A stretch of DNA of 54,145 nt, the filler included, from Streblomastix strix (lineage: Eukaryota): the NCBI GenBank assembly GCA_008636045.1. It is 3 parts of 3 records of this genome, joined end to end, with 100 filler letters (N's around TTAATTAATTAA, not from the genome) between each part and the next. Parts side by side here need not be neighbours in the genome. Positions count along the whole stretch, not along the records: positions 18,096 to 36,085 come from SNRW01000653.1; 2 more parts are not named here. One strand, 5' to 3'. Below, piece by piece: positions 1,761-54,145 of this stretch (the stretch's first letter is position 1; each line of letters starts with the position of its first letter). The position numbers and the translations under genes were made by a program. The notes under the pieces are model-generated. The model was not told where the DNA came from. It saw only the letters and a list, made by a program, of their open reading frames with translations, and did not search any database.

Positions 1761-4700
1761 ATGCAACTTCTGGTTGATAAATTGTTTGCTTCCTCATTAG
1801 ACCTTACGAGTGGGAGAGAATCGCCTTTCAAAGTATATAAAAACTCTAAGTAGATTTCTGGAGGCCTTAAGTATATTTATTTTTAAATTTTATTTTATTG
1901 ATTGATATATTAATATTTTTAATACAATTATATAAATAATATAATAAATAGAATTGTGGGCGTGAATTAGTGTTCATTATCTGAAATCGAGGCGTCCAGC
2001 AACTTGGGGACAATATTAAGCTATAAAGTTTTAATTATCATTATATTTTATTAATTTATCATTATATTTAACAAAAAATATACTTTTATATATTAATTTA
2101 GAGGAAATAATTTGGTTCGATCATTTCCTACGAAAAAAGTATAGTCATTGATTTAAATGGAGACGAACAAGTGATAAACACGTTATTGAAAGATAAACTG
2201 CAATAACAAGTCACAACAACTATTAAAATCCATAATGTTATCTTTATGGGCTGAAAAGATGGAGTAGTAGAGATGTGGAATATAGAAGATATAAATAAAG
2301 AAGGAAACCAGAAAAAGCTTTAATATAAATTAGTACATGAGGTAAGTTTAACTTATTAATTTTATTATTTATTTATTAACTATGAATTAATAATATAATT
2401 TTCACCAGTTTAAAGATGTTAATGACAGAAGCTCAGTTTTATCTCTAGAATCTATTCTCCCATTTCCAAGTGTTATATCTGTATAAATTAGTGGATTATG
2501 CAGAATATGGTATTATATTACTATATTAATACTTCTATATATTTGAGTATATATTAATTATTATCACAATCATTATACAGGACTCCAAATATGAATGTTG
2601 TAAGTGGAATTGATAATAGAGAATTAGATAATACATTAATTGAAGGAGATTCATTTGGAGTTGTATGCATATAATATTGTAATACAATATGATTCATTTA
2701 ATAATTATTTAACATTGCAGGTTTTATCTTCTGCATTGATCTCACTTCTCCCTCAACCTTCATTGACTGAAAAATAACAATAGTAAAATTCAATTCATTC
2801 ATCTTCATCATCTTCATCATCTATTACATATATGTTTGCTGTTGCATCATTTCATAGAATAAGAACTGTTCGTATGATTGGAGTGTAGAATATATTGAAG
2901 TTGGCTGAATCTGAGATTGAAGGAAATGAATGTGAAGATATTGGGTTATAATAATCTGGTAATGAAAATTCATAAAGTAAATCAAATTAAATATCAATTT
3001 ATAAATACATTCCATGTGTTCAATGGAAACCACGACACAATTCAGATTTTGAATGTATGTGATGTTTTTAGTTACTGATAAGTATTAATATTTATTATTG
3101 GATGGATATTTTATTATTGTTTTATTTTGTTATGTAGATATTCTTTCTGTCAGTGTTGGGAAGCGAGTGACATTTGTTGATGAAATGTTGAAACAACTTC
3201 CTCCAACAATTTGTAAGGTTTACAATTTAACAAATTATTCTATTTTTAAATAATTTTTTAATTTCTTTCTTTTTTGCTTTGATACATTTAAGAGTGGATT
3301 TAATCTGGAAAATGTTGCTTTTACTCACAAATGGATTGATTATTCAACTCTTGCAATTATCGACTTGAAAAATTTTCTAACGTTTGACTTTATTTAATTA
3401 TTTCTAACATTTTTATATTACATTTATTTAATTATTTCTAACATTTTTATATTACATTTATTTAATTATTTCTAACATTTTTATATTACATTTATTTAAT
3501 CAGTTTATATCAATTTCCTTCGTGTACATCAATAAATTAGATTGAACTTCCTCAAATAAGATAATTAACACATTCTCCATTTGATTCTTTAATTTGGAAA
3601 GATAGAAATGAAATTGAATAGAATAAAGAATAGGATTAAATAAATATAAAGAAAGAATATTTATCTGAACAAGCTCTAAATTATATTAAATAAATTGAAT
3701 TCATTTAATGGTAACCTTACGTTTCAGTTTCACCAATTGAGAAAGAAGATTCATAATTATATTCTTATTTGGATAAATAGAATTCTTCTTCAATTGTTTC
3801 AAATTCTGATTCTTCTGAATTGATTCATCTTCCTTTTCTGTCATTTATATCATAAGAAGGATTATTATAAAGTATTTATATCATATAACTTATTTAATTT
3901 GAATATAAATACTTAATTTATTATTGTATATTTTATTTATTACAGAAGTTGGTATATAAAATTGGAAAGAGAGATTGAATGAAATTGCAGAAAAGAATAA
4001 TTTGATTGAATTTATGAATTTATCTCAGGATTATTATGATGGAAGGGGAATGTATGAAATAATGATGAATTATTATATAATTAAATAAATAAACTTATTT
4101 TGATTTGATTTATTTAAATTTAATTAATTTTATTATGAAATGTTTATTCAATATATATTTCAGTCTTCCTCCAACACTTTCACTTATTTTGAGAGATGAA
4201 AGAGAAAAGAAGATTAAATAATTTGTTTTTGAATCAGACAAAGGATTATTAATTAAATTAGTTGAAAATTAAATATAAATCACATCTCAATTATTGCCTT
4301 CATCTGAATCAAATATCACTTCAAACGATCTTAATATGAAGTAAAGTGAAGAAATAGTAAATTAAAAAGATTCAAGAAATGATATTGATATTTATTCATT
4401 TATTGATCTTACTCATTCTCTAATTAATTTTGCATTGAATATTGGATCTATTGATGAATATCTGAATTTTATACATTCAATTCTTTTAGATAGGATAAAT
4501 CAAGATAAGAAAATTAGAAAAGATATTTAAATGGAACTTGGAATGGAAATTGTTCATGGGAGAGTGAAGATTATTCCCATAAAAGTTTGATTATTATCCA
4601 TTTAATTTATCATTAATTATTTATATACATTATTTATTTTCAGGTACTAAATGAACTTGTAAATGTACTCATTAGTGAGAATGAATTTGTATTGGTAGAG

Positions 4701-17995: not shown

Positions 17996-18095
17996 NNNNN
18001 NNNNNNNNNNNNNNNNNNNNNNNNNNNNNNNNNNNNNNNTTAATTAATTAANNNNNNNNNNNNNNNNNNNNNNNNNNNNNNNNNNNNNNNNNNNN
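17996..18095. other. Artificial contig-joining spacer
   Basis: 44 N + TTAATTAATTAA + 44 N, a six-frame TAA stop linker. Confidence 0.97.
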
Positions 18096-20742: not shown

Positions 20743-22225
20743 ATGTCATCCTTTAGCTTATAAATACTGTGTTCTGACTCAGATTCTGATTATGTAACTT
20801 GAAAGACATCAATTCCCAGTGATTCTAAGTCATTTTAAGTAAATTTTCTTAATAACATGCCAATAAATCTTACTTATTACTTGAATCAAGATTACTTAGA
20901 GATATCTCATGGTATGTAATCATCTATAAATAAGAAATACTACGAATAATATAATATTCGTAATGGAACATACAAATTAACAGAGATAACTGAGATTCCA
21001 ACTATAAAAATAAACTTCAATACTACTATTAACAAAAGATACACTAACGAATAGAATTATCAAGGATATTAATATGCTCTCTTAACCATGGTTATAACTT
21101 CAGCATAGTTAGATGAGTTCGTAGATTCTTAAGAAAAGTACTTTCAGATGATAGACACTAGTAATCATGGAGTAATTTGCATTAATAATGCTTCTAATGA
21201 ACATACTTAGAAGTTATCAGATGGAAAATACTCATTGAATATTAATGATAGTTAAGATATAGTATCTTCTGCAATAAATTATATTATTCTAAGATTAGAT
21301 TCATTTCTATATAAGTACTTTACATAATCTAATGGTTGTTACTACAGATTAATAGGTATCAATCGTTTATATTGCCCTACGATAAATAACTTCATAACAA
21401 CTATTGAACCATTCTTAACAACAACATCAGTTCATTCAGTTAAAATACGATACTTACATGGAAAATAATTCCATATCAATGATGTTAATATAATAGAAGA
21501 AGTAATAGCTTTACCAAAGAATATTTAATAACCAACTATGTAATCAATCACTAACAGTATCAGTACGTATCCAGTAAGAATAATATCTTCAATTCGTTGT
21601 TAGAATTCTAATGATTGGAATATTATATATACTGCTGTTAACAGACTTTAATATTATAAATAATATGTTCTTGATGTATTAACTCAGTTTTCAACTATGA
21701 ATTATTAAGCTAGTCCTTAGATTCTATGGTAACCAAGGAGATTAACTCTATCACCTAATTTATTCAAATAATTAACTGGTGCATTTGATTTATATGATGG
21801 ATTATCTGAGAATGCTGCAAATCCTATCGTTAATAATGCTTCATCAGTGAAATTTATTGACTTAGAAACTTGGTATTATAAAAACTCAGTATGATTCTTA
21901 TAGTTAAATTGCTGATACTCCAATTCTATGTTCATTGATTGGAATTTTCCATTAATATCCTCAGATGCTTATAATTTCTGTCTCTAACGAGTTATAAGGT
22001 ATCACATTATAAGGAAAAGATGGTTAAGGATTCTTAAATGTATGCTACAAGTAAAATCTTATTGGTGCACCACTATTATTGGGTTAAAATATGTTATCTT
22101 AAGAATGTACGATAGGCTAATACAAAAATGTTATATTCATTTTATATGACAATTATGGAAGAAAAATAATTAATTAATATATTGATATGTATAATAATTT
22201 ATTATTAGAAATTCAATCTTAGTGA
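20743..22225 (+). pseudogene. Putative minor capsid (penton-like) protein
   Basis: About 490 codons, beta-rich, C-terminal FILYDNYGRKI...LLLEI typical of Polinton-type pentons. Clear paralogue at 47666-49162. Internal TGAs and frameshift. Function is inferred. Confidence 0.55.
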
Positions 22226-22393: not shown

Positions 22394-24352
22394 TCATCCA
22401 CTTCTAAGCATAGTCCCACCAACTTCACCTATGATTTCAAAGTTTAAAACCAATGGTTCAGGTGCATCATCAAAAGTAAATCTAATGATAGCATCGTATA
22501 GATAGTGCATCTAAAGAGTTATTTGAGCATTTCTTGGAGTAGGATAAGCTCTTGTTGCAATAAATTGTAAAAGATTATTCTAATCATCTTAGATTCCAGG
22601 AGCTGCATCAAGTATCTATGAATTATCTATTATTCCTTGAGTTATACTCCCTTATAAAGTAACTTGAATATACGTTCTTGCACCCATTTTGTTGAACTAT
22701 ATTATTTCATAAATGAATCATAAGTTGCCATCTTCCATGCAAGCATAAATTTATGATGATAATGTATTTTTACTGCTTTATTTCCTATGTACAACGTTGT
22801 ATTATAGAATATATTTTCTCTATCAATATAACTAGTGCCCATTTGTCCATAGTAATTGCCATTTGATTCATTTATAGTTTGATTTTGAAAATTCAATGAA
22901 TGATATAAATCTGTAGGTGCTGAAACTAAGTCTTACTCAACAAAAAATTTGAATATCTATCCTGTAACCATTGGATTCATCGATACATATTCTTACTAAA
23001 TAATATGTCGCTGATCAATTTCCAAATTAAACTTCTAAAATAACACAGGAAACATCCAAATTGGATATTAATTCAATGCAAATGTAATAAACATAGCTTT
23101 TATGTTTGAACACGACATCGTACTCTACATTGAACCACCATTTTCTGAAAATCCACGAAATGGGAAGTTACTTGATTATGTACGTATAATTTACATTAAG
23201 AAATTCAATATTTTTTGAGTTCTTATCATATCAATGATTGCTTATTCATTTTCCATGTCAAAACTCACATTATTAATATCTAACTTAATGAATCTTGCTT
23301 CCTTAATTTAATTTATTGAATTTGTAGGTCTTCTTTCATCACGAGCTTTTCCTTCCATATTAACTAATCTTACAGAAAATCCTAAATATGCAGCTACAGC
23401 TGCATTAATTAAGAAAATTAGATCTGATTTCTCTGTTGGAATCATTTAATAAGCAAGATGTTAGTTAGTTATTGTATCAGTCATATTCAAATATACAACC
23501 TTCAGATATTATAAGAAATCTTAAGTCTAAGTATAAATATAACGATGCATAGTTACGTTTTAACACTGGAAATGAATTGAATATTGGATTTAACTAATTT
23601 AAGTCAAGTACTCCAACAATAATTATTGGATATGTAATTAATTAATTAAAGCTTCCAGCAGCAAAAGCTTCAACAGGTATATCTATGAAAACTCCACAAT
23701 GTCTTCTGCCACTAACAACTGTTTCTAAAGGTGATACACTTACAGAATTTTTTGTACATGAATCAGATAATGAATTTGCAGCTATCACAGCTTATTCTCT
23801 TGCATATCTTGATGTCTCCCATAGTTTTGTATAATCTTTACAGATTGCTATTTATTAGAATGGTCCACAAGCTATTGAATAACCAAGCCAGAACTTAACA
23901 TATTCATTCGGATTGATTGGCATTTCTTTATCTTTAGCACCAACTGCCATAGTGCGAACCCAATCTGCTTATAGATCCTCTAATCCATTGAAATTTACTC
24001 TTGCTCTTGCTATTGCCTTTGAATTTAGAGCTGTAGATAATCCTGGAATTAAATTAAGTTATAGTGCCAATCTCTCTCCAGGAATTGTTATTAACCAGCA
24101 GATTTAACATGATTATGCCATAGAGCTAGTTTCTTAACCTCTTGCACCTAATGGAGCTAATGTATATCTTTATCCATCACTTGTAAGTTAATTAATAGGT
24201 TAATCAAAGAATTTTAATCTACTTATATTAAAAATCTATGGATGAATAGAAGCCTATCTCAATACTTCTGACATTGCTGAATAAATAGATATATAATCAG
24301 AATGTTAAACACGAGCTAATTTTTAAATATAATCACTTGCTGAGAAACTCAT
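22394..24352 (-). pseudogene. Putative major capsid protein (double jelly-roll inferred)
   Basis: About 650 codons: MSFSASDYIQKLARV...KFWLGYSIACGPFQQIAIC...LDLNQLNPIFNSFPV...KFMLAWKMAT...HYLYDAIIRFTFDDAPEPLVLNFEIIGEVGG. Several frameshifts. Size and context fit an MCP; the fold is not verified. Confidence 0.6.
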
Positions 24353-24407: not shown

Positions 24408-24647
24408 ATACATTAACTAGAAAATCAAATTAAATTCAATAAGGGATTCTTCTCTGGTTTGAAAAATTTCGAAAGTAAGATATTAGGTGGTATTAAGAAA
24501 GTTGCAGACTGGGATACGCCTACTTTACATAAAGTAATGGGTACTTTAAGTGGACCATTCAGTATATTACATCCAGGAGCTGGATAGATCATGGGAACTA
24601 TAGGTAATATTGCTTGTGGATTAGATAGGCATTTAAATAAGAGATGA
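24408..24647 (+). CDS. Gly-rich amphipathic peptide resembling the adenovirus protein VI lytic helix (start codon unclear)
   Basis: KGFFSGLKNFESKILGGIKKVADWDTPTLHKVMGTLSGPFSILHPGAGQIMGTIGNIACGLDRHLNKR*. Confidence 0.55.
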
Positions 24648-25400: not shown

Positions 25401-27634
25401 TCATGGAGGAACAGCCCCTAATGTTACTGGTTTAGCTCTCCAACATATTTTAGGTCCATCACTATAGAATCCTCCATTTGTATCTACGCTATTTACACCC
25501 CATAGATTGGACTTTCTGTTGAATAATTAACTAAACCATTACTAGCACCGTTAATTGCACCGATTCCAGCAATTACTTATCCATTAAAAGATAATGTGTT
25601 TCCATCTGTTGAGATCATTAATCCTTAATTATCCTGACCAAGTTGAATATTAACTCCAATTCTTAATTCTCCAATAGGTGTATTTACTATTTTCCAGTAA
25701 TCTGTTAATGTTCCATCAGTTGAATTTGGATTACATCCTAGATAAATTCCACTATAATTAATAGCTTCAGAACGAGATATTCTTATTCCCTCATTATAAC
25801 TATTACTAGATGGTTTTATTTAAAATATATTACTAAATGTCTTTCTACCTGTAATGGTTTAATCAGTTCTAACATCAACTAATTCATTACTATTAAATTT
25901 AAATTATGTACAATCACTATTAATACTTAATCCAACACTATGGTCAGCTTATCGTAGAGACGATGGGTTAATTGTTAGTGCCCTATCACTTATTTTACTT
26001 ATCTCCCATTAACCTAATTGTGTAGTATATATAGCTGTAGTTGAACATCCGAAATATAATGATGAGCATTCAGTGTTATAGTTTCCAATTCTAAAACTAT
26101 TATTAAACGTAGTATAAGTTTGGCCTGTCGGATTAACTTATAGCATATTATTTATTATACCACCATTAGCTAAATTATAGGTAATTGGTATTTATATACC
26201 ATTTGATATTCCTGAGACTACATCTTATGTTAATATCTCTGTGATTCTATCAGTATAATAAGTGCTTTAATCAGATGCAACTATCGTAACGTTACCAGCA
26301 GATTCTAATCTAACATATGCTGAATAAATAGCTGATGTATCAGAGCCTGAATGATTATGAAATAATTAATTAACACCTTAATCTATATCATAGTATGAAT
26401 TAACTTTAGTTGCAGCTGTAAATATTCCATATATAGTATTGATTCCATTAACAGTATAATAAGGTTCTAATCTAATGGTTTGAACAGAATTGTAAGATGA
26501 ATATAATTTAAATTCAATGAATGGGCTACCTGCACTAGCACCAGCAGGAAATACACATAATCTAATCCATCCACCTGCACTAGCGTTATATGATCTAGAA
26601 AATTTGCAATCTATTGTAGTTGTATCACCATTAGCACACAATACTTCTGTAGCTGTTCCTCCTGATTTAATAAATTTAGTTGCTATACCATTTCCATCGT
26701 AAGTTAGTTACTGAGGATGAAGATGATCATGTCTTGAATAATATGCTGATGTACAAATATTTCCGACTCCATTAACTACAGGTACAATTGAAGCATTTGT
26801 TTAGACATTAATAGAATGAGAATGATCATTTCTAGAGTATGAATCAACTGTACCATAAGATCCATCTGCTGAATCACTATTATAAATAGTAATTACAGTC
26901 TAAATTGGATGTTAATGATCAGATCTAGCATAAGAACTAGCTTGTCCAACAGTATTTACAGATGTATCTTTACTTGGTAAAACATCAGAAACTTATAGTG
27001 GATGCTTATGATCTCCTCTACAGTACTCATTTGAAGTTCCTGCAGCATCAGTTCCACTCCAAACTAATGGAATATCATCACTTGCAAGAGTTACTTAATC
27101 AGGAACCATATCTCCACTGTTATATCAATTCTAATCATACATCCATACTGTACCACTTTCAGCTGAAAAAGCAAAATCACCATTGGCAGAATTAGGTCAA
27201 TTTTATATATCTGTGTTCAATAAATAGTAACCTCTAAAATGTGTTTATTTGTTAAGTTCATCATTAATATCATTAATTTATTATTATAATCCACCAATAT
27301 CTTATGTTGCTGTTCCAAACGTCTATTATAATACGTTAACTTCTTATTCTAATGTAGTTATTTTACGTAAGAAATCAATATTTAATAAATTTTTATTCTT
27401 CAATGTCATAACACCATTGGTTTCCAGTTTCATGGCATAATTCAATGGATTATCTATTGGTGCATATATTTATGAGTTATAATCATCAACTATTGATTAA
27501 TATTCACTTCCTGAAAATTAACTACTGGAACTTGATGAATTTCTTGAATATTGTATCAAATATTGGAAATCAAATTATATTTATGAACGAATAACTTAGA
27601 TCTATTATTAACTCAAGGTTTTAGCTAATATCAT
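25401..27634 (-). pseudogene. Phage-like tail-fibre / receptor-binding protein
   Basis: N-terminal coiled coil; four YxRxDHxH repeats (YCRGDHKHP, YARSDHQHP, YSRNDHSHS, YSRHDHLHP; about 26715-27030); FIKSGGTATEVLCANG; DQTITGRKTF; two GxRI...I/LYxGC...W beta modules. Two internal TGAs and a late frameshift. Confidence 0.75.
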
Positions 27635-27689: not shown

Positions 27690-28262
27690 TCATCTTTAAT
27701 ATTTTGATTTATAATTTCCATTACGCAGCTTATCAATGTATATAAAAACAGGTTTATCGTTAATATCTTGAGCATAAACATATTAATATTAATATTTATT
27801 CTTTTTAGTGAACATCTCTAACTTTCTATATTTTAGTCCATTATGGAAATAAACGTTAAAATCTTAGTCAAAACTGTAACCTTCAAGAATTGATTCATTA
27901 TATTAATTTAATATTTAAGATCCTGCAGGTAATTCATCTATATATTCATAGGTTGATCGATTTGTGTTATTCTCTTTTGGAGTTACCCATCGTAAATTTT
28001 CTATTCGATTATCGGCTCGATTTTGGTTTTTGTGATCGATATCTGGTAAATTTAAAGGATTAGGAATGAATTGTATAGTTATAACTCGATGAAATTAAAA
28101 TTTTACACAATTTAGAGAAACATATTAATAACCGTACTTCTTATCAATTGAAACAATTGGAATAATGCCATATGAGATTTTTCGTATTGTATATGGTGAT
28201 CCAGTTAATATTTCATAATCATTATCAAGTTCTAAAACTTACCATTAATTAATTTCTTCCAT
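27690..28262 (-). CDS. HNH homing-type endonuclease (HNH_3/NUMOD4-like)
   Basis: Intact 190-aa code-6 ORF containing HRVITIQFIPNPLNLPDIDHKNQNRADNRIENLRWVTPKEN. Confidence 0.9.
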
Positions 28263-28300
28263 TTTTGGAAGGAAAAATAATTATTTATTAAATAAAGTTT

Positions 28301-29356
28301 TCATTATTTGATTATCAGAAACTGGCTAGACCATTTACTAAGTATTATGAATTCATATTTATAATGAGTTCCATACAGTAACATAAACTCATCAAAGTTA
28401 AGATTCTATAAAAAGTTCTCTTCGTATGCTTGTTTTAAATCACTGTCAGATAGACTAACTCCTAAATGCATGACATGAGATAAAATTCTTGCAGTTTTAA
28501 ATAAGTAACTTGGACGTTATGCAACAAAGAAAACAGTATTTTTATTATGTTTACTGTCGGAAATTAAATGAGTTATTGTCTTCGCTAATCCTGAAGAGAA
28601 TCTATAAATATCAGCATTACTTCCTACGTCATCAAATATTAACAATGAATTTAACAATAAACTATGAAATAATATAGGAATCTTCGTTACTTTTAATTCA
28701 GCATCACCATCATCTTATTATATTTCTATTTATCTCTCTAATTATACGTTCTGAATCATAGCAGGAATAGTAAATCTCATTATCATTGTTGGAACACTAT
28801 ATTTAGTTATGATATTAATACATTCTTAACGAAATATCTAAGCAATTCTTCTTGCATAATCCTTTGGTTTCTCTAATTATTATTCTGGTGTTGCAGAAGC
28901 AATTCGTGTTGGATTCTATTTTATTTGATTCATTATTAATATTCTTTCTTTCATTCTCTGTATGTAATCAGATTTGTACGATAAATTTACTTCAATTAAC
29001 TTCCAATATGCATATATTTCTTTAACTTAATATTTAATTTCTTCAAATTATGGAAGGAAATACATAGCTTCTTCATAAGTTATTTTAGTTAAGACTATAT
29101 TCTTAGAGTTTAGATTCAATGCCATAGTCTCATCAGCACCAAAATTAGAGAAATATAAAATGAATGGATAGATTTTTTATTTGTAGATTACTATCAGTTT
29201 ACTTAATAAAGTTGTTTTACCTTAACCAACTGCACCAACTATATAATGATTCCCAATGTTTAAGAATAATGAATTCCTTGTCAATGGCTTTGTTTTATAT
29301 TCATCTAACATAGAAATATCGGTAAATGTCACAGATTATATCTCAGATAATGTCAT
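28301..29356 (-). CDS. A32/FtsK-HerA-like genome packaging ATPase
   Basis: Intact 351-aa ORF: Walker A GAVGQGKT, Walker B LLIFDD, then SKHNKNTVFFVAQ (RH...Q motif). Confidence 0.85.
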
Positions 29357-29397: not shown

Positions 29398-29790
29398 ATG
29401 ATAATAAATTCTATATTTTATGGAGTAAACTTCATTGTATCTATAATTTCTCTATCAAATCCAAAGTAATTACCAGATATTACTGCTTTAATTAAATAAT
29501 TATGGAGTTATTTTGATGTGATTCTAGTTCCTATTAATATAATTATATATTTATTTCTGTTTGTTTATCGTAGGAGAAAGAAAATTAAGATATAATCATA
29601 AAAAGAATCTGAAGAGAAACCAAATATTAATTAAGTAAGTTATTTTCATTGGTCTAAGTATTCAAATGAATAGATAGAGGAATTCATTAAAGAAGCCATA
29701 GAAAAATAATACGAAGAACTTGCAAAGATGTGGAGATATATTGTATTTAAAGTTATTGAATCTTAAAACTTATAACACTGTCTCAAGTTG
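29398..29790 (+). CDS. Putative membrane protein (end uncertain)
   Basis: Hydrophobic N-terminus, TM segment VILVPINIIIYLFLFVY followed by RRRKK. Confidence 0.45.
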
Positions 29791-30781
29791 AAATATAATA
29801 CGTTCCATTAATTATAACAGAATTTCCTGTTGTCCAACTTATTTTTTGAAATATTTCATACTTACCAGTAATAATTATCAGTTGGACCATTAATTCTTAA
29901 ACAAACGTTCGTTGGATAAGTAGAACCTTATGAAAGAGAAATTTCTTAAAGCGGAAGATATTTTTTTCTAGTGATAGCCTAATATCTTATGGAATGCTTA
30001 ATGTAATTATTTTCTAACTGAATGATGTCTCATATATTGTTAGATCCATGTTAATATACACCATATTTTACCATTTATACACGAATTATGTTGAAAATTC
30101 TGATGGAATTGAAACATTTGTATTCAAAGTTATGGAACTACAATAATTAGTTAATAAAGTTGAAGAATAAATTACGAGATCATTAAACATTAATCTTTTA
30201 CTCATCATAGCTTATCAATGTTGTGAATCATTACTTGGATGAATTAATAAAGTATTTAATTTACTTGCTCTTATTGACCATTATCCACTAATAGCACCAC
30301 TTTCCTAAGTGTTAGAACAGCCAAAATATATGTTTGAATTCTAATCCAATGTCAATTTTGCTAAATTTCTGGAAATTCTTATTCCATCAACACATTCAGC
30401 ATCATAATAATGTCTTAAATTAAAATGATTCATATCAATTCCATTTACAAGCATAATTTATTAATTAGTACCTTTTGGTTCTTTAAAAGATTATGCTGTA
30501 ACTTGATTCGTAAATGATTTAGTTCCAGTAACAGTATAAGCTGTGTTCAATGTTACTAAATGTGATATATCCACTTATGTTTTCTTAAAGAATTAACTAA
30601 AGTAAGTAAAATATTTTATTATTTCATTATCTATTTATTATATTATTTATTTTTACAAATTCTATAGTGATTCTATTTTTTATTATTATTTCTTCTTCTT
30701 CTCATATTCTGATTTCATTTATTATAGTTCTTCTTCTGATAGATCCTCTAAGTCAGTTATTTATTACGCTTCTTCTTCCAT
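29790..30781 (-). pseudogene. Second, shorter tail-fibre-like gene, degraded
   Basis: Coiled-coil start MEEEAQQITDLEDL..., then LVTLNTAYTVTGTKSFT and GIRISRN...IYFGCS...GQWSI, matching modules of the 25401-27634 fibre. Frameshifts and stops. Confidence 0.6.
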
Positions 30782-32270: not shown

Positions 32271-32922
32271 TTTAAATTTATAAATATTTTAAACAATAAT
32301 ATAGCTGTTATAGCTTATTGGTATCGATAGTGAATCAAAAAATTTTCGGCTTAGGTTTGTATCGAACTTGAGTATTATTTTTATAAAAATTATTTTCAAT
32401 TAGTTGATCATGATCATAAAAATAAAAATTAAAAAATTAATTTTCAGAAGTTTGTCGATCACGATCTGATCGGATCAAACTTTAGTGATCAAACATTAGG
32501 AATTGAATTTGAAAATTATTTTTTGGCAAATATTTCGGAAGATCACTTAAGATATGTTATTATATTTTATAAATGCAAATCCTAGCTTATAAATTAATAA
32601 AAAATCAAATTATAATAAATAATATGGAAATAATAACATATTTAACACGAAATCTTGAAATATTTATAAAATCGATTTTTCAGCACGAAATTGCAATTTA
32701 ACTCAATTATTTTTTATTTTCCAATATTTAATTATTTTTTATTTATATTCTAATCACATTCATTAGCATAGAATCACTGTATGATTACTGTTTGCAGACC
32801 TCGTTTTTGGTGTCAACCACACTACATTATTTTTGTATTTTGAGCTCTATCAAGCTCAATCACTCGATGAACATGACCTTGAGTTGATTTTGAAAATGAG
32901 CTCTCAAAATAGTAATTATTCG

Positions 32923-33052
32923 TTGAAACACGTTTTAAAACAGCAATCACTTATTGAAACACAATTAAAACAACAATCGCTCGTTGAAACACAATTAAAA
33001 CAGCAATCGTTCGTTGAAACACAATTAAAACAACAATCACTCTTTGAAACAC
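32923..33052 (+). repeat. 30-bp tandem repeat, about 4.3 copies
   Basis: TTGAAACAC at 32923, 32954, 32984, 33014 and 33044; unit approximately TTGAAACACAATTAAAACAGCAATCGCTCG. Confidence 0.9.
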
Positions 33053-36000
33053 GTTCTCAGACGAATTCTTAACAATTAATGCAGTGCCCGTCTTCTCTAT
33101 ATTATTATTTCATTTTACAATTATCTTATTAATTATTTATAATTTTTATTATTTGTCTACTTTATTTATTTTTATAATATGCAATTAAATAATTTTAATA
33201 AATATATCCTATAAAACTTTATTTATTCAGACAGATATGAATTAAATAGTCAAATTTATTCTAACTTTTTTCATATTTTGTTAATTTATTAATCCATTTT
33301 TGAATTATTATTAGTTTAATATATTTTTAATTTAATTTACATTAATTAAACACAGATTATTTATTAATTTTTTTTTATATTTGGTTTTAAATTAAAAATT
33401 AAAAATTGAATGATATACTTAATGAATTGACTGATTGAGATTATTATGATAAAAAATAAATAGCAATTAAATGAACGGTTAGATTAATAATTGTCATTAA
33501 ATTCTGATTAATATTCATTATCATTTGCAATTACATCAACATCATCAAAATCATTATTAGTATATTTAAATCCTATGTTTGATAGAAAGATCATAGTCCT
33601 ATCAACTGTTAATTCTCTCCTTTCATATGAAACCAAAGAATAGATGTTTCTATCTACGATCAATTTCACAAGAAAGAGATTTTTTGATATTACTTGATGC
33701 AATTAAACGTTTTATTATTAATATTAATAATAAATATTAATTGACATTATGTTTGATTAAATGCTAGAATTAAGATTTGAAAACTAAAAATGATGGAAAA
33801 GCTCCAACTAAATAATAATCAAAATTAGAAATGAATTAATGAAGTCATGAATTCTTTAGTACTTGCTGTAGATATGAAAATTCCAAATTCTTAAAATCTT
33901 TTCTTTATTGAATGTATTTTGCGTAAAAAATATCATTTAAACTTATTATTTCAAATGAAACTTCTCTGATTGAACTGGATAATGCAATGAAGAATTCAGA
34001 TCCAGAGTTTTGAGAAACACAACTAAATTGAATGAAAAAGATATCAAAAAATTGAAATTGAATATCATACAAAATAATGATGCTGTGATAAGGAATTAAT
34101 TTGAGAAGGAATTAAAGGAAATAAAAAAATTTAACGAAGAAAAATTATCTGAAAATTAAAAATAAAGAAAAAATGGTGTAAATAGGATGAATATTTTGGC
34201 GACTTGAAAAATGATAATTTTGATTTTGGATAGATAGCTAAATTTTAATATTAAAATATAGGGGGAAAATGATTTGCAATAATATTTAGTAAAATTATGC
34301 ATATGGAGAGAATGACGGCTAAATTTGTACATGAAGGAACAGTTATAACACTTTCAGACGAAAAAAAATCATAATATCAAATATTTTCTCATTAGTCCAA
34401 AATAGTATCATTTAATACAACTCTTAATTCGTTGTGCAATGGTTTTGCAGCAACGATGTCTCAATTAATGCGAATATAAGATTTAACTTAATAAAATGAA
34501 GATATATCAATCTCTGAATTTCATCTTGCATTATGTGAGTAGCATGATCATGATATAATAGATTATTATGCAAATTTCACACCGAAAATAATATTAAACC
34601 AACAATACCAATTATTCTTTACTTGTGACAAATTGTAGAATCATTTACACAAATAGAATGCAGGTGACTTCTTCGATTTGCTTCAGGTAGTGGAGCTACT
34701 CAAATAAAATGATTTGCGTATCTAGTTGGAAATTAAATCGATGAATATTATAAATTTGCAATTATATTAATGAGTATAGTCCTAATGTTGAAGCATAAAG
34801 AAGAGCAGAAAGATGCAAATAATTAACAATCCAAATTGAGAAAGATAGAGCAGTGGAATTGTGAGCCTTTCTGTTGATCATTTGCGTTTCAATCGAATTT
34901 ATATTCTTCCATATACATTATCGCAAATGTTGGAAGCTTTACTAACCAATATTTTAAATTTACCAAAGTTTGTTACTGTAGGATTAGATATGAACTGAGT
35001 TTATTGATCTACATATTTACTGTTATTTTTTGTTTATTTGCTATCTTTGATGCTTTTTACTCAAAATTTTTAAATAATAATAATTCATTTCACATTCGCA
35101 CTTCATTACCGAGATTACTTGTACTTAAATAAATAAATATTTTTTTTGTTATCAATTAATATTCTATTTTTTGATTCAGAAATAAAAAATAAAATGAAAC
35201 TTATATAAAATTGTTGAATTGAATGTTTATTGAATGAACAATTTTGATAATAAACAAAAACTTTCTTGGTGTAATCTACCATCAATATTTAACTTGCAAT
35301 TTATTTCATTGATAAATAAACTGATATAATTTTAGTATTATATTATTATATTCTTTTCGCAAAATTACGAGTTATTGCTTCTTTTGTTTTACTACATCTT
35401 CTGCTTTTGAACAATGCAGTTCTAATTTTCATTCTGTTGAATTGTATTTTATTTCTTCAATGAACTTCATTCATTCTTTTGAAAGTTGGAATTAGTGTCT
35501 CTATGATCTATATTTATTTTCTGAGAAATGCGATTTGAATCCAGTTCCTTCATTTGATTCTTCGCGCTCTACCTCGTTTGTATTTTCATGGTTCAGTACA
35601 TTGCAAACACTATCAGAATCAACTATTACCTTGTCTTTCTGAATTTTTAGAAGCTCAACACAGACAATAAATTCATTTTTTTATTCTCCTGCTTCGCATT
35701 GAGGTCGGAATAATTGTCGTTCTAGTCGTTCAATCTGTTCACCTTCTCCAGGATGAAAGTTGATTGGCAATATGAATATTCATTCATTAATTTAATTTGA
35801 TACGTAGGGTCATTTCAAAATATAGTATTTTGAAAATACATAGTACTTATGAATGATCAAAGTTTGTTTAAGAAAAAAATTAAATGGATTCATATATACT
35901 TCATATATGCTAATAAAATAGAATTCAAATCGTATATTTAATATATGCTGAGTGCTGGTTTATTGGAACTTTTAAACTAAAAAATGCATAAAAATAGTTA

Positions 36001-36085: not shown

Positions 36086-36185
36086 NNNNNNNNNNNNNNN
36101 NNNNNNNNNNNNNNNNNNNNNNNNNNNNNTTAATTAATTAANNNNNNNNNNNNNNNNNNNNNNNNNNNNNNNNNNNNNNNNNNNN
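36086..36185. other. Artificial contig-joining spacer
   Basis: 44 N + TTAATTAATTAA + 44 N. Confidence 0.97.
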
Positions 36186-36548: not shown

Positions 36549-36624
36549 ATATAAATATGGTAATAAAGGATAATATATTGGTAAAAACTAAGGTAAAAAT
36601 ATAAATGATCTGTCCCTTGAAGCT
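36549..36624 (+). repeat. Left inverted terminal repeat of DIRS element
   Basis: ATATAAATATGGTAATAAAGGATAAT...GATCTGTCCCTTGAAGCT; 71/76 match to the reverse complement of 39149-39224. Confidence 0.9.
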
Positions 36625-36651
36625 TTTTTATAATTCACAAAAGTGTTCAAA

Positions 36652-38046
36652 ATGACACAACAGACCCTCAACGACCCATTTAAATGCCTTAAAAATCTGA
36701 AAAACATGACTACATAGTTCTTTTTTGACGTGGCAAATAAGGATGAGCAAGCCTCGGGCTAGTATATGAATTGCTAAATCCCTTCGTTCATTACGCCGAT
36801 CCTCCCTGCATGCTTACATCTACTTCGATGATTTGTTCAAGAAATTGACGTTTTGGAGGGATAGAACTCTTTTCCGTGGCAATAGTTGCTTGAAGGCGTG
36901 AGCGTGAAGCATATTAAGGCATTTCACTTCTTACTTATCGTCGGGGGTCCAGTTAATACGGACGGTACCTTATCAGAGAGTGTACAATCAACATAGTTCA
37001 TGTGAGACATACATAAATTGTAATATGGTGAAGTTGAACAGCAAATTCAGATGGAGACATTCGGATTTCCTAGGCCGACTGAGGAGCAGTAGAGACCGTA
37101 TACGCCTGCGTTTATACCGTGATAAGGAACTAAAGTCCAATTCAATGTACCACTGACTAAATTTCCAAGCCTGCTTAAGGAGAAAGAGAAGATTCGATCT
37201 CCTGATTTATTACATGCGTAATGATCCTATACGCAATCACAATTGCACTCGGTTCCGTAAATATCTCATCCAAGACCATCTTTTACATCACTTATGGATT
37301 AAGAAATCTCTGACGAAAGCGATATGAACCAAGAATTGGACGACTATCTCCTTTTGCAAGATGGATAGCCGACTCAGAGTATTAATGGAAGAGTACTTCA
37401 GGAGGTTGCATAAGCAATTGAAGAACTATCGATTAGAGTTCTGAAGCTACCCAAATTCACGTGGGAGTCAATTGAACTGGAAATACTTAGAAATTTAATC
37501 GTCAGATGTCCACAAATTCAGAAACCGGAAGATGTAATTGGATTATTGGCCAAGAAAGAATCAAGTGACACACTCTCTCTCGATAGATACTTAACAGGAA
37601 TTTAAGGGCGTGTATTTAACTTAACAAAGCTGCTCCTTGCTACTCTGACAAGTTATGCAGTGCAAACTGGACTACATCTATAAGAGATAATAATTTACGT
37701 ACTCAAAACAATGGAAATATTCAATTCTATTTAAGAAACAAGGCGTATTAAGTGCCTGTACTTATCATCAAAGCCCGTCGCGACAACAGAGGAAGCATAG
37801 AAAAGACTGAAGGAACTAGAAGAAGAAATAAAACTGACACGCAAACCTAAGTACGATTTCCGACCACAATATACAATGAGACCTTTATCGAATATGGACT
37901 AAAAGAGGAAATACAATGGGTTTCAATAGTACAATCAATTCAGTTGGCCTCCGAAACAATAATAACCTGGGAAAAGGACAATTGGACGTGATCGAGGCTA
38001 TGATAAAGCAGGAAGAAGAGGCAAGAAGCCTCAAAATTCAACATGA
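36652..38046 (+). pseudogene. DIRS gag-like ORF1
   Basis: 465-codon frame MTQQTLNDPF...RRGKKPQNST* with about 4 internal TGAs; basic RG-rich C-terminus overlaps the RT frame. Confidence 0.65.
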
Positions 38047-39150
38047 TCTTAACGTGATTGGGCCCCCGAACCCCAACAGAACAATCGGGGTTGGATATAA
38101 ACTGCATTCAACCCTAAACGGCAGTTATTAAAGGAATAGATATAGAAAATTAAAGATTAATAAAGCACAGAAAGATAACAAACGCCATTAGGGGGATGTC
38201 TAAGATATAAAATATTACAATGGAAAGAAATAAATTGCAAATTCAATCTTAATTAAGGTATTCAAATAGATTGGGCCGATAATCCTCCATCATCAAAGGG
38301 TTACTCTCAAATTATCGCTCATAACTTATAGGAATTGGAAACACTAGACTAGCTAATAAGCGAAGAATTAAAGGAATAAATTATAATACATTGCAGAGAA
38401 TAGGAAATTCTTCTTCTTAATCCAATCTTTGTTAACCGAGAATCTTCTGAGGGGTACAGAAAAATAATGGATTGCCAAAATCTAAATTAATATATCAATT
38501 AAATTCATTTCAAAATGGAAGATCAACGGACGTTAAGAGATAATTTGTAACATAACGATCTGGTTTCAACACTAGGTCTTAAGTCAGCTTATCTTCATGT
38601 ACCAATGGCGGAAGAATCCTCTAAATACTTCGGGTTCAAATACAATAATCAATATTACCGTCAGAAAACGCTATGCTTCGGGCACACATCTGCCCCACAT
38701 ATATTCATACAACTAATGAGGCTCATAATCTCTCAATTGAGACCCAGAATTAGAACAGTCTCGTACCTAGGCGACTTTGCTTTCCTGTTTACAACAGAAT
38801 CAGAAGCTTTAGCTGGAATAAAAGAGATTATCTTACTTTTTCGAAAGCTAGGATTAACGATAGAATGGAATAAATCTAACCTCATTCCATCTCATTAATT
38901 CACATACCTCGGATTCGATTGGGATACAAGTAAGATGATTGTAAGCCCATCAAAAAAAAGAATATAAAAAGCAACAAATAAAGTTTCTCAAAGATTAAAA
39001 AAAGAATTACTTTTGTGGGAAAATCGCCTTCTATTGGACTTTGCTCTATCAATAATTCCATTTCATTAAGACGCAACCCTTACCACAGATGCCAGCTAGG
39101 ATGGTCTAGGAGCTTGGTTACAAAAAGGAAACTAGAGAATGGCTCAACAG
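37916..39150 (+). pseudogene. DIRS-type reverse transcriptase with partial RNase H
   Basis: PLGGCL...W, RKIMDCQNLN, HFKMED, LGLKSAYLHV, LCFGHTSAPHIF, SYLGD, FTYLGFDWD, TLTTDASQDGLGAWL. Frameshift near the 5' end. Confidence 0.9.
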
Positions 39151-39224
39151 CTTCATGGAACAGATCATTTATTTTTTTACCTTAGATTTTACCAATTTAT
39201 TATCCTTTATTACCATATTTATAT
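39149..39224 (-). repeat. Right inverted terminal repeat of DIRS element
   Basis: Reverse complement of 36549-36624 with 5 mismatches. Confidence 0.9.
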
Positions 39225-39299
39225 TGTACATATTTGAACACATCGCGAATAAAAGAGTGAAGTTCTCATTCATGTCTATCGCCTGGGCTTTGCCGAGGC

Positions 39300-44787: not shown

Positions 44788-45846
44788 ATGAACAATTTGT
44801 AAGAGTAGTTCGAAAATAAAACTATATCATAATGATATAAAATTTACTTGGATAATTTCACGAAATACCACGCTGAAAGAATAAAACAAACAACAAAGCC
44901 ATAAACAAAGCCAAAACAAGTCGTAGAACCCCAGCTAATGATAAATATATTTCGTAGTAAAATTTAAAACAAAAATGATGTTGTATAAGATATAAAAATA
45001 AAGACATTAAAAAAATACTAAAGATCTAATTTTTCACCAGAACTTGGAAGCTGGGAAATTGATATACTTTTTGTAATACACCAAACAATTAATATATTTG
45101 TATAATAATATTTGTTTTGCATCAATATTAATACTAAATTTTTGGTTGTATTTCTTATAAAGGATAAAACAACAAATGAATTACTATGATGTATAATGCA
45201 ACTTATAAAAGACTAAAATGTTAATAACATACGGTCTGATGGTGAATCAATTTTAGGAAGTAAACAAATCAAGGAGTTTTTAAAAGAAAATAATATAAAA
45301 TATTTCTTTAATTCTTCACCATTCATAAATAAAAATCGAGTTGTTGATTCAGTAGTAAGAACAATATGAAACGCATTTGAAAATGACCCTTAGCTAATGG
45401 CTAATAACAAATAAATATAACAATTATTTGGTGAATATAACAAAACAAAACATAATGCTTTGAAGCTTTAAAAATAATCTTTTATACCTTCATAAGTTAA
45501 TTATAATGAAGATTTAGAAGGTATATTTATACGTAAGAAAATGGTGTAGTTAAAAGGTATAATGGATTTATAGAACAAAAATAAACAGCTAGATTTAACA
45601 AAAGGTAATATAATAATGATATATTTGGACCTATCAAAAACACCTCATGGATTTCAAAAGAAAAGAAGGTAATTTAATGAGATAGCAGCATTTATAAAAT
45701 ATGAGCATGGTAATGTTAATTGTGAGTTGTTAAAACCATATAAAAATATAAAAACAGTTGAAGTTTCAGTATATTATACGCATAAAGTTGCTGACAGTAT
45801 TGATGTATTACCTTAAAAATATAAAAGAACCTTTTAATTATTTTAA
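44788..45846 (+). pseudogene. Retroviral-type (rve) integrase, D,D(35)D
   Basis: GSWEIDILF...YLFCININTKFL...IRSDGES...NRVVDSVVRTI*...YNKTKH; three internal TGAs; 3' end set by homology. Confidence 0.85.
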
Positions 45847-45870
45847 TTTATTTTTTTATTAGTATATTAA

Positions 45871-46140
45871 ATGGAAGATATAAAAATTGTAAATTAAACT
45901 TTAAAGGCTTGAAGACCTAAACAATTTTAAACAGAAGACTAAGCAAAAAATATAGCAAGATAATAACGCAAAGAATATAAAGCTAGAAAAAGCGAGGAGT
46001 TAAAAAAGTTTAACCTATAAGCTTCTGCACTACAAATATAAGTAATAAAATTATTAGGTAAAATAGTGTTAGATAACGATGATATTATAAAAATAAACGA
46101 TATGATACAAAAGAAAAAAAACAAATTGAGGTCCTAAAAG
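45871..46140 (+). pseudogene. Small basic hypothetical protein, homologue of 18938-19210
   Basis: MEDIKIVNQTLKA*RPKQFQTEDQAKNIARQQRK... Confidence 0.5.
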
Positions 46141-46169
46141 CTAGCGTTTTATTGAAAAATGAAGCAACT

Positions 46170-47233
46170 TCTTTATCATGGTTTCTTTTTCTTATTTTTA
46201 CTGTATTTATTCTTTAATTATTTTTAAGCTTCTAATGACTTTTATAACTAGCTTGTTGGCATATAATTTTTATGTTTTGGTGGTCTATTCATTCTGTCTT
46301 CCTTCAGCATTAATTCCTTCTTTGTTTGTAAATATAATTGACCCCCTTCATTCATGTAATATCCAATCCTTTTTGTGGCATATGGTGTTTTGCAATAATA
46401 CTGATTTACTGGGGCAGTTCCCCAATTTAATCTGTTTGTAAAATAATCTACTCCCTTTTGCGTTTGTGCATTATTTTGCTAAAAAATTTATCCTTCAACT
46501 TATTTTTCTCTCTATTATTGTTGCAACTCATTTAATGGACTAATTTGCTGATATTATTCTGTAAAATTTTATAGTTAATATTCAAAAGCATCTGTTGTAT
46601 TATCAAGACCTTTAATTTAATAAATATTATCTTTTTCTTTTACCTTTTCCTTTTCTTATTCTAAATGAGACCCAAACATAAATTGCATCAAATCATCTTC
46701 TTTATTAACGTCTTTTGGTGGTGCTGTTGCATGTAATGATGGTTAAGGAATTGCATGGCTTCCTATATCATTTGTCAGTTCATTTGTTCTAGCATTTATA
46801 CATAAGGATTAATCACTCATAGATGCGTTTCTATAAACACCTTATAACGGATCATGAACACCTCGTATATGTTCATCTAAATCCCTATAATATTCTATCA
46901 AATCATTGGGGTCAATCCCACCAAAATGTTTTTACCTTCTTGTTGCACCTTTCATACCTTCAAAAGCTGCTTCGACATCTCCACGGATAATATTAGGGTC
47001 ATACTATCTTACTTAATCAATTTTTTCTTTCCGCTACCTACTACTATCAGCACCTAGTTTTTTTAACAGCTTCCAATAGTTTTAACTCATCTAATATAGA
47101 GGGTATTTTACTTACATTTCGGGGTTAAACTTATTAACCCTTATGTATATACGGCTTTTTTGAATCAATAAATACACTAATATGTGTTTTAGATTTTACT
47201 TGTTTTAGCTGGTGCAACTCTCTTTGCATGCAT
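46170..47233 (-). pseudogene. Hypothetical viral protein, homologue of 19248-20321
   Basis: Shared WGxxP...PY/F...GY motif, same strand and position in the gene block. Confidence 0.5.
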
Positions 47234-47285
47234 CTTATTTTGCTTAAAATTATGTATTCTTATTAATATTTTTAATAACAAATAA

Positions 47286-47378
47286 ATGGCATAACAACTC
47301 ATATTTAGTGAAATAATCATTATAATTTCAAGTTTCTTGCTTATTATTTCATAATTATCAAACTTTAAAAATAATTGA
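47286..47378 (+). CDS. 30-aa single-transmembrane peptide
   Basis: MAQQLIFSEIIIIISSFLLIISQLSNFKNN*, homologue of 20340-20450. Confidence 0.55.
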
Positions 47379-47429
47379 TAACGTTTGTTTTATTATTTTT
47401 TAATAGCACAATTTACGTCTCCCTGTAAG

Positions 47430-47645
47430 ATGTTGAAAATAACCTGTGATGAATACATGATATATGCAAAGTTTCTAAATTCATTAATATCTGTAGCAAC
47501 AAAGGCACCAACAGAAATAGAACGATGTTTTTTATTATGATAATTTAATAAACATTTGAAAATGGACTAGTTAAAAGAAATAGTAGACATAGCATAAGAA
47601 AATAGCCAAAATGTTGATATGAATCTATTTGAATATTTGACATGA
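47430..47645 (+). pseudogene. Small conserved hypothetical protein
   Basis: MLKITCDEYMIY...SVATKAPTEIERCFLL*QFNKHLKMDQLKEIV. Confidence 0.55.
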
Positions 47646-47665
47646 CATTAATTTTTGATAATAAA

Positions 47666-49162
47666 ATGGGTGGTATAGGTTTGCAAATTATAAGCTCTGA
47701 CTCTGATAAGGATTTTGTACAGTGGGACACAACGATACCAAGTGGTTGCTAAAGCTTTCAAGTTAATAGTATTAATTATATACCAATTAATTTAACATTT
47801 TATTTAATTGGTGATTATATCGAAATATAGCATAACATTGCTTCTTCAGATATGATGAAAATATACTTTTAACAAAAGCCAGCAAATGCTGACTAGCAAA
47901 CAAATATATTAAATGATACTTTTAAGCTATAATTTATTGACAAATTACCTCCTATAAGATTAAACATGAACACAGCCATTGATTGCAGTTTTACAAGCGA
48001 CTAAACAGCATAAGGATATAAATATATGCCTAGAATATTAGCTATTCCATTAGCCAACATATCGAGCTTTGTTGATACAATGTTGAAGTATTTTTATACA
48101 TAAATAACGTTGAATAGTTGAACAATATGCTTTAGTAATGGAATGAATTAGCACAAATAAAAACTATAAAATAGTGCTTACGAGTTAAATACAAATTATG
48201 GGTAGGGTGTTGTTAGCTCAGCAATTAATTACATAAATTTAAGCATTGATGCATTCTTATATAACTACTGGATATTAGACACAACCGCTAATGTAGCATA
48301 TCGAGCTATGGGGTTAATTCGATTATATTGTCCTTCAATAAATAACTATATAACATCTATAGAACCAAAGCAATTTGGAGCATAAAATGGTCTAGCAGTT
48401 AGATATTTATTTGGCAAGTAAGTAGACATAAACCCTAATGGAACATTTACATCATCAGATGAATAACCCATTAATGTATAGCAACAAACAATGCAGTAAA
48501 TTATTAATAATATAAATATGTTTCCTGTAAAATTAATTTGTTCAATACCTGCACTATGTATAACTTAATGGTTAGTAATTTATAATTTATTTGGTAGAGT
48601 AAGTTTTTATGGTTTGTTTGTTACAGAGATTATAAGCGATTACGTCAAGACATTATACACATACTGATTTGCTAATAGAATAATTTTAACACTTAATTTG
48701 CATGTATAACTAGCTGGTGCTTTAGACTTATATGATAGACTTAGTGAAAATGGGGCTAATCAGATAATAAATTTATCATATGCCATTAAACAAATAGACC
48801 TAGATATATGGTTCTACTAAACAAAGTTTGATAATTAAAGCATAGAAACAGATTTAAAAAATTTTTGCCCATATATTGGTAATTTTCTTGAATATCCGCA
48901 GATGTTAATAATTAGTGTATCAAACTAGCTATAAGGCATTACTTTATAGTCAATTGGCGGTAATGGGTTTTCAAACGTATGCTTTAAATAAAACTTGGTT
49001 GATGCTCCGGTATTATGGGGGTAAAACATGATGTCTTAATAGTGTTTGATAGGTTAAAATAAGTCCTTAGTATTCATTTTATACAACAATTTTGGCAGAA
49101 AAATACCAATGCATTTTATGGATATATACAATAATTTATTACTAGAAATAAAATATTAATGA
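47666..49162 (+). pseudogene. Putative minor capsid (penton-like) protein
   Basis: 499-codon frame, full-length homologue of 20743-22225 (e.g. QLAGALDLYDRLSENGAN vs QLTGAFDLYDGLSENAAN); internal TGA at 48119. Confidence 0.55.
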
Positions 49163-49179
49163 TTTTAATAATATAATAA

Positions 49180-49505
49180 ATGGATAAATTAAATAAAGTT
49201 TTGACTACATTTGAATTATCAATACTACATTATAGCACAGCATTAAAGGACATAAAAAGGTTTGAAAAACAATTATAAAATCCATCAAATTATACTAAAT
49301 AATGTGAAGGAACAATAAGAGTTAATTTGCATACTATTAGATAAACAATTGATTAAGTGGTGAATAATGCAAAAGAACAGATAAAACACTATACAAAAAT
49401 GATTGAAAACAACCTGGAAACAATAAATGTTTTATATATAATGCGTATCCTTAATTATAGCAGGAGTTTGATGACTTTATAGATGAACATTAAATAACAT
49501 TTTGA
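49180..49505 (+). CDS. Hypothetical helical protein
   Basis: MDKLNKVLTTFELSILHYSTALKDIKRFEKQL...; 3' end uncertain. Confidence 0.4.
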
Positions 49506-49561
49506 ATCATATTTTTTTTTCTCTTTCCAAAATTATTTTTACACATTTTAATTTTAAATAA

Positions 49562-53920: not shown

Positions 53921-54145
53921 GAGAAGATATTATTGGCGAAATTGGCACCATTTTCAAAATCGCTAGGTAATTAGACTCATTTGTCCCAGCCGTTAGAAAA
54001 ATCACGTTCCTCAATTAGGACGACGGAATAAATAACCAAAATAACAATTGATCTGAAAAATAAACGGTCTTCAAGAATCACGGGGATAATCAACGCAATA
54101 TCCTAGGCCCAAGCACAAACACATCAATTCATACCATATCTGGAG

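Follow-up and report, generated by a model that had tools for sequence, protein, structure and literature searches.

A gene on a contig of Streblomastix strix (fibre gene 1) encodes the remains of a probable fibre protein of modular build, in which three short modules, HxH, FIK and TITG, are homologous to modules of phage proteins as judged by sequence comparison. We put the probability at about 0.78 that fibre gene 1 is a broken Maverick/Polinton-type virus gene, that its intact relatives form homotrimeric capsid fibres built partly from phage modules, and that the protist surface is the likelier target of these fibres. The modules common to phage tail fibres were likely taken from bacteriophages, the direction of transfer being read from their distribution and not from a rooted tree.

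Host and genetic code

The window, i.e. the whole stretch of 54,145 nucleotides that was analysed, consists of three contigs separated by N spacers (17996-18095 and 36086-36185), and fibre gene 1 sits on the middle contig of 17,990 nt. The host had been supposed to be Streblomastix-like in an earlier, sequence-only reading, and S. strix is identified as the host by a database protein that matches 85% of the main frame with 100% identity. Four runs, belonging to three studies, include contigs with related DNA, and no RNA data set was among those listed. Under translation table 11, just seven ORFs of at least 100 aa are found across the whole window, while the region reads under table 6. TAA and TAG account for 42 of the 53 Gln codons counted over fibre gene 1 under code 6, which argues against a mis-binned prophage. 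Endogenous viruses of S. strix with capsids of the Metamonada group, described in the main text of PMC10120064, use the same code.

Architecture and decay of fibre gene 1

The limits of the gene had been set correctly in the sequence-only reading: it runs on the minus strand from an ATG at 27634 to a TGA at 25403-25401 (Table 1). The copy present here is dead, because its reading frame shifts near 25505 and is interrupted by TGA codons at 27199-27197 and 27127-27125. Decoding of TGA as Trp was considered and rejected, as homologues vary in the residue at both stops and TGA terminates neighbouring genes. The capsid-like gene beside fibre gene 1 is broken as well, carrying two frameshifts, and the whole element is therefore decaying. 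From the N-terminus, the protein comprises an N-terminal domain, a coiled coil, a small beta domain, the HxH repeats, the FIK module and a beta-sandwich, which is followed by beta-repeat B1, the TITG spacer, beta-repeat B2 and the tip. The FIKSGG and DQTITGxKTF motifs quoted earlier are both present. In the family of protein P0001, 35 of 84 members stop at short tails resembling ...FNGRVL and 45 have the full tip; the short tails may represent a true short isoform or an artefact of the gene models.

Table 1. Features of the fibre genes and their neighbours, in positions of the window
Feature	Position	Strand	Remarks
Fibre gene 1, pseudogene	25401..27634	-	read in code 6; frameshift near 25505 and two in-frame TGA codons
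Predicted coiled-coil helix near N-terminus	27245..27379	-	helical at residues 89-132 of the P0018 homologue model
Small beta domain (HFRGYY...GDFAF...W)	27113..27241	-	contains both premature stops
Four HxH repeats	26717..27025	-	period about 31-33 aa; candidate metal-clamped shaft
HxH repeat YCRGDHKH	27002-27025	-	fibre gene 1
HxH repeat YARSDHQH	26909-26932	-	fibre gene 1
HxH repeat YSRNDHSH	26816-26839	-	fibre gene 1
HxH repeat YSRHDHLH	26717-26740	-	fibre gene 1
FIKSGG...LCANG module	26627..26674	-	FIKSGGTATEVLCANG; common to phage fibre-type proteins
Jelly-roll beta-sandwich	26222..26599	-	predicted to be like trimeric tailspike C-terminal domain; two sequence types in family
Beta-repeat B1	25892..26146	-	
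DQTITGRKTF motif	25835..25864	-	BppL_N-like spacer
Beta-repeat B2	25580..25825	-	variable cassette, 4-5 types
Conserved C-terminal tip	25404..25570	-	frameshift splits tip
Likely major capsid protein gene	22394..24352	-	two frameshifts
HNH endonuclease, optional insert	27690..28334	-	PF13392, 42.4 bits
P-loop ATPase, likely packaging	28301..29356	-	Walker A GAVGQGKT, Walker B LLIFDD; weak generic P-loop Pfam hits
Fibre gene 2, pseudogene	29783..30781	-	in-frame TGA at 30217-30215
Fibre 2 TITG+FIK stem	30440-30574	-	
Fibre 2 single beta-repeat	30272-30388	-	HMM E 5e-13
Integrase-like fragment at contig edge	18258..18941	+	resembles 44938-45909 by inspection; no Pfam hit of its own

Neighbouring genes and type of element

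Fibre gene 1 is placed between a packaging-ATPase-like gene and the broken capsid-like gene. The HNH gene that intervenes on the ATPase side is an optional insert, contigs in X2, X3 and X5 joining position 27690 straight to about 28331. UniRef names 11 of 73 homologues of the capsid-like gene as major capsid protein, and searches of this gene against PDB and Pfam profiles gave no match. Five of the 120 listed fibre proteins agree with one of these 73 capsid homologues in the length of the contig and have nearly adjacent locus tags. Matches of module HMMs on the ATPase were traced to fused gene models and discarded. The element is likely an endogenous virus of the Maverick/Polinton type. On the next contig, the region to which the integrase-like fragment was compared matches Pfam rve with E 0.0012 and 19.6 bits, below the cut-off of 32.6. 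A protein-primed DNA polymerase B was not found among the frames scanned on the 18-kb middle contig, and a piece of such a polymerase (PF03175, 33.8 bits) lies on a neighbouring contig. No terminal inverted repeats were found; the element seems to be truncated by the contig. A Caudoviricetes tail fibre in the strict sense was rejected in view of code 6 (TAA and TAG read as Gln) and of the four neighbouring frames scanned, which in PHROG yielded nothing better than E 0.09.

Several further features were noted. A small gene remnant (24444-24644, plus strand) encodes an amphipathic, Gly-rich peptide (GFFSG...KILGG), relatives of which begin with MGFFS and occur in fusion with gene models of the fibre; we take it to recall membrane-lytic peptides of the adenovirus protein VI type. 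The next contig holds a second element (44938-54145) with an rve-like integrase, a broken protein-primed DNA polymerase B and paralogues of the genes at 20857-22225 (71% DNA identity over 300 nt). A reverse transcriptase (37294-39260, plus strand, PF00078 66.4 bits) is accompanied by 79-nt inverted repeats at 36549-36627 and 39146-39224 and likely belongs to a DIRS-type retroelement. Tandem repeats are located at 32906-33060 (30 nt, five copies) and 3389-3505 (34 nt, three copies).

The HxH, FIK and TITG modules and their phage relatives

All four YxRxDHxH repeats claimed in the sequence-only reading were located (Table 1). They are the only matches to Y.R.DH.H in the six frames of the window, and none occurred in any of 100 base shuffles. 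The eight His positions of the HxH motifs are conserved to 95-100% across family members, and this holds even for repeat 3, in which R is kept in just 56 and D in just 51 of 88 sequences. Among 75 members with a measurable region, 53 have four repeats, 21 have a single one and one is intermediate.

A DNA pattern covering one HxH repeat retrieved at least 123 stretches from IMG/VR; in the phage instances the motif is longer, at about 30 residues. To avoid circularity, scoring was restricted to the 12 columns that lie upstream of this pattern. A random set of 20,000 windows served for comparison, and its 99th percentile was surpassed by 47% of 246 repeats from S. strix, the four repeats of the window ranking at 0.99, 0.96, 0.36 and 0.996. 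PHROG tail families were matched at E 1e-5 or better by 45 of 51 scanned carrier ORFs, which had been picked out of 124 from loci with full flanks; these matches fall mostly outside the HxH module. Two tandem repeats are identical in 32 of 67 positions to the phage ORF L250:4350-5537, which is flanked by tape-measure/tail and endolysin genes of a temperate phage with a GC content of 0.51. The absence of phage homologues, named beforehand as speaking against a phage-like fibre, is thus not what was found. An Atlas structure search with the L250 ORF returned a Preaxostyla cluster on top, below the tool's threshold, and Atlas feature scores stayed below 0.9 and serve as leads only. Two further phage ORFs, L027:2216-7120 and L075:1426-6519, contain 12 and seven HxH copies, respectively, with no Pfam hit for the module.

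For the FIK pattern, at least 124 stretches were recovered, and upstream of the part searched for they agree in G-x-[IV]-T-A. Of the 80 loci shown for GTDB genomes, several of which share a contig or genome and are not all independent, 72 bear titles of Bacteroidota taxa. Named phages matching FIK are crAss-like and Synechococcus phages, with tail fibre genes among the matches. The TITG profile matched 13 frames in loci L249-L336, most of which had been chosen for FIK. In a phage ORF of locus L253, the TITG motif corresponds to Pfam BppL_N (PF18338) above the curated cut-off, and within the fibre family its profile gave a hit in one of 52 members, at E 0.009. The resemblance of repeats and motifs to phage fibres, as proposed earlier, thus reaches beyond the motifs that were searched for. 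Of the 131 frames with HxH, just two contain FIK or the stem described below as well, and the arrangement in S. strix therefore looks like an assembly from multiple sources.

The remaining parts of the protein present a different picture. For the sandwich, B1, B2 and the tip, no phage sequence homologue emerged in the searches made, and IMG/VR scans for relatives of the C-terminal half of fibre 1 were negative. A metagenome scan revealed one phage locus only. The 613-aa frame matched no Pfam or PHROG family apart from coiled-coil noise, and neither this frame nor the HxH module matched PDB sequences. Profiles of phage HxH, FIK and fibre 2 gave no significant match in PDB, nor did PDB sequence searches with the module turn up a solved structure of the HxH repeat. 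A tblastn search against named phages ended at E 0.2-5, and one with a phage query reached E 0.02 for one unannotated phage.

Fibre gene 2

A second fibre gene, also a pseudogene, had been said to reuse the modules of the first. This applies to a TITG/FIK-like stem and one beta-repeat but not to HxH, which a six-frame scan of the window did not detect in fibre gene 2, and its tip is unrelated to that of fibre 1. Among seven relatives of fibre 2, the beta-repeat is optional and at least two unrelated tips occur. The stem is identical in 25 of 46 positions to ORF L326 on a contig labelled Bacteroides, where the ORF sits downstream of a PHROG-matching gene. This best match scores 60.6 bits as compared to 45.5 for the runner-up and is suggestive of a Bacteroidota-phage source for the stem. 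Fibre gene 2 also contains an AT-rich, in-frame stretch of 60 nt with GT...AG ends (30597-30656, minus strand), the 20 residues of which are missing from the gene models of all six full relatives; the stretch may be a spliceosomal intron within a Maverick gene.

Predicted structure

Monomer models were obtained for homologue P0018 (mean pLDDT 56) and for the C-terminal half encoded in the window (68.5). The HxH repeats are left unmodelled, with pLDDT below 50 at residues 181-345 of P0018. The sandwich matches residues 528-685 of WceF (6tgf) with Z 9.6, rmsd 3.7 and 128 aligned residues (Z 9.9 in a repeat run), and the next seven matches are phage tailspike, fibre or baseplate chains with Z 5.7-7.2. 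The middle domain is thus predicted to fold like the jelly-roll of trimeric tailspikes. For the small beta domain, a weak match to residues 3-62 of ORF18 of Geobacillus virus E2 was obtained (Z 5.9, rmsd 4.3, 54 aligned). A Foldseek comparison to phage fibres, suggested earlier, was positive in one database only: the top BFVD matches of the whole models are long tail fibres of the gp37 type (E 3e-9 and 5e-9), with TM-scores that are low (0.1-0.3) and stem from elongated models of modest confidence, but PDB yielded nothing at E 0.001 or better. As far as predicted models go, the sandwich and the gp37 matches uphold the proposal of a fibre- or tailspike-like fold. Metal binding by the HxH repeats would be consistent with the His conservation of 95-100%.

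Variation within the family

Fibre 1 has 350 relatives, and all 120 that were listed are from S. strix. Variability of the tip had been proposed as a check. The tip of fibre 1 is conserved, with a mean identity of 0.77 (n=33), and the variable part lies just before it, in B2 (0.53, n=67). Mantel correlations for the 48 of 120 listed proteins in which sandwich, B1 and B2 were all present gave rho values of 0.77 for sandwich-B1, -0.01 for sandwich-B2 and 0.00 for B1-B2. Furthermore, each of the four main B2 types is paired with both sandwich types. The proposed modular build is supported, one module, B2, assorting independently of those upstream of it among these database proteins. The B2 pattern fits cassette exchange; chimeric assembly of repetitive DNA could mimic or partly explain it.

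Comparison with known systems

Phage-like fibres in Polinton-like viruses (PLVs) have been published (PMC12220804; bioRxiv 2022.07.28.501842; PMC8502044). Reported examples are BppL_N modules of Paulinella PLVs, phage tail repeats of Trichomonas vaginalis PLVs (PMC12220804) and the Ltf protein of Gezel-14T, which is present in particles (bioRxiv 2022.07.28.501842). The PLV fibres (Gezel-14T Ltf and those linked to cryptophytes, Paulinella and Trichomonas) resemble the S. strix fibre in their gene, which is long and modular, includes phage-fibre modules and belongs to a Polinton-type element. However, Pfam hits to the S74 chaperone, collagen, laminin G and gp36 were obtained for none of 52 S. 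strix members, and a C-terminal Peptidase_S74, as in PLV fibres with an S74 chaperone, was absent from all 52 at E 0.1. Instead, the S. strix fibre features the unnamed HxH repeat, FIK, a tailspike-type jelly-roll and a cassette-like beta-repeat. The virophage DSLV2, as outlined in PMC12724248, likewise combines a gp37-like fibre related to phage proteins with a small eukaryotic DNA virus. Its fibre is specified by three short genes with PF07484 collar domains and forms a heterotrimer with demonstrated LPS binding, whereas S. strix has one gene for 740 aa plus a shorter second one and lacks a collar hit.

HxH sites that bind Fe or Zn across three chains are documented for gp37, gp12 and pyocin fibres (PMC6116203). 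T4 gp37/gp12 and R-pyocin fibres share with the S. strix protein the HxH motifs in an extended region, and gp37-type proteins are its top BFVD matches, but sequence similarity to these solved chains is lacking, YxRxDHxHP is a separate module and the element shows no tail genes. In WceF, which is natively trimeric, residues 528-685 fold into a jelly-roll that follows a triple beta-helix (PMC7949094). The C-terminal beta-sandwich of the WceF/Acinetobacter tailspike is the fold match described above (Z 9.6-9.9); the S. strix sandwich differs from it by an identity of about 10%, the lack of a catalytic beta-helix and its position in the middle of the protein. The S. strix endogenous viral elements of the Metamonada MCP group agree with our element in host, code and capsid homologues, and the word 'fiber' does not occur in the main text of that study (PMC10120064). 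A literature search returned nothing on this S. strix fibre family; the supplements of PMC10120064 and PMC12220804 may mention it. The fibre architecture is new, as are the two phage modules without a name and what looks like cassette shuffling; the general idea has already been published.

Proposed mode of action and possible receptors

In the mechanism we propose, the N-terminus and the coiled coil would anchor the trimer on the capsid, and in the shaft, HxH motifs from three chains would clamp a single Fe or Zn ion per repeat. With one ion clamped per repeat, the repeat number (one or four) would thereby set the length of the fibre. The jelly-roll and the exchangeable B2 may bind surface glycans, most likely those of the protist host, and exchange of B2 would diversify binding. 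The suggestion in the sequence-only reading that host glycans or ectosymbionts are bound remains speculation.

The same fibre could have its receptor on Bacteroidales ectosymbionts, such that particles attach to the coat of bacteria and are passed on to the protist through contact or ingestion, which we consider unlikely. S. strix does bear such ectosymbionts according to PMC12483993, and the virophage DSLV2 provides a precedent in that its gp37-like fibres bind Synechococcus LPS (PMC12724248). The prevalence of Bacteroidota titles among the FIK loci and the best match of the fibre 2 stem point in the same direction. However, the Bacteroidota-like parts are stem and spacer, the likely binding domains have no phage sequence match, Synechococcus phages also carry the FIK module and the closest HxH tandem comes from a different phage. 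Moreover, the origin of a gene does not reveal its receptor. Slightly more doubtful still is the extended scenario in which the Maverick took its fibre parts from phages of the host-coating Bacteroidales, the cassette-shuffled fibre docks there and B2 tracks the symbionts. If docking on Bacteroidales were true, a eukaryotic virus would use the symbiont coat both as its receptor and as the way by which it spreads.

The breakage of both fibre gene 1 and the adjoining capsid-like gene, together with the many partial members in databases, could indicate that the family no longer serves as virion protein and is either a surface protein used by the host or an inert passenger multiplied along with a transposing element. 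This is improbable, as His positions and tip are conserved among copies only 50-80% identical, full-length members such as P0018 exist and the fibre gene remains linked to capsid and ATPase genes. That the phage resemblance reflects convergence of short motifs, the modules spanning just 25-45 aa and a whole-protein phage homologue of fibre 1 not having been found, or that the contig is a mis-binned bacterial prophage, is already largely refuted and hardly credible, since similarity extends outside the searched patterns (46-67 aa at 48-54% identity), three modules agree and both TAA and TAG encode Gln.

Implications

With the reading as fibre of a Maverick/Polinton-type virus, several hundred 'hypothetical' proteins of S. 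strix gain an identity, and our observations suggest that the Mavericks of S. strix formed particles equipped with an attachment apparatus of their own. In addition, two widespread phage-fibre modules that had no Pfam hit in our scans are defined, one of which is a candidate metal-clamped shaft repeat. The family constitutes a natural allele series, with one or four repeats, two sandwich types, four to five B2 cassettes and at least two fibre 2 tips, with which one could examine the binding targets of a protist virus whose host is covered by bacteria.
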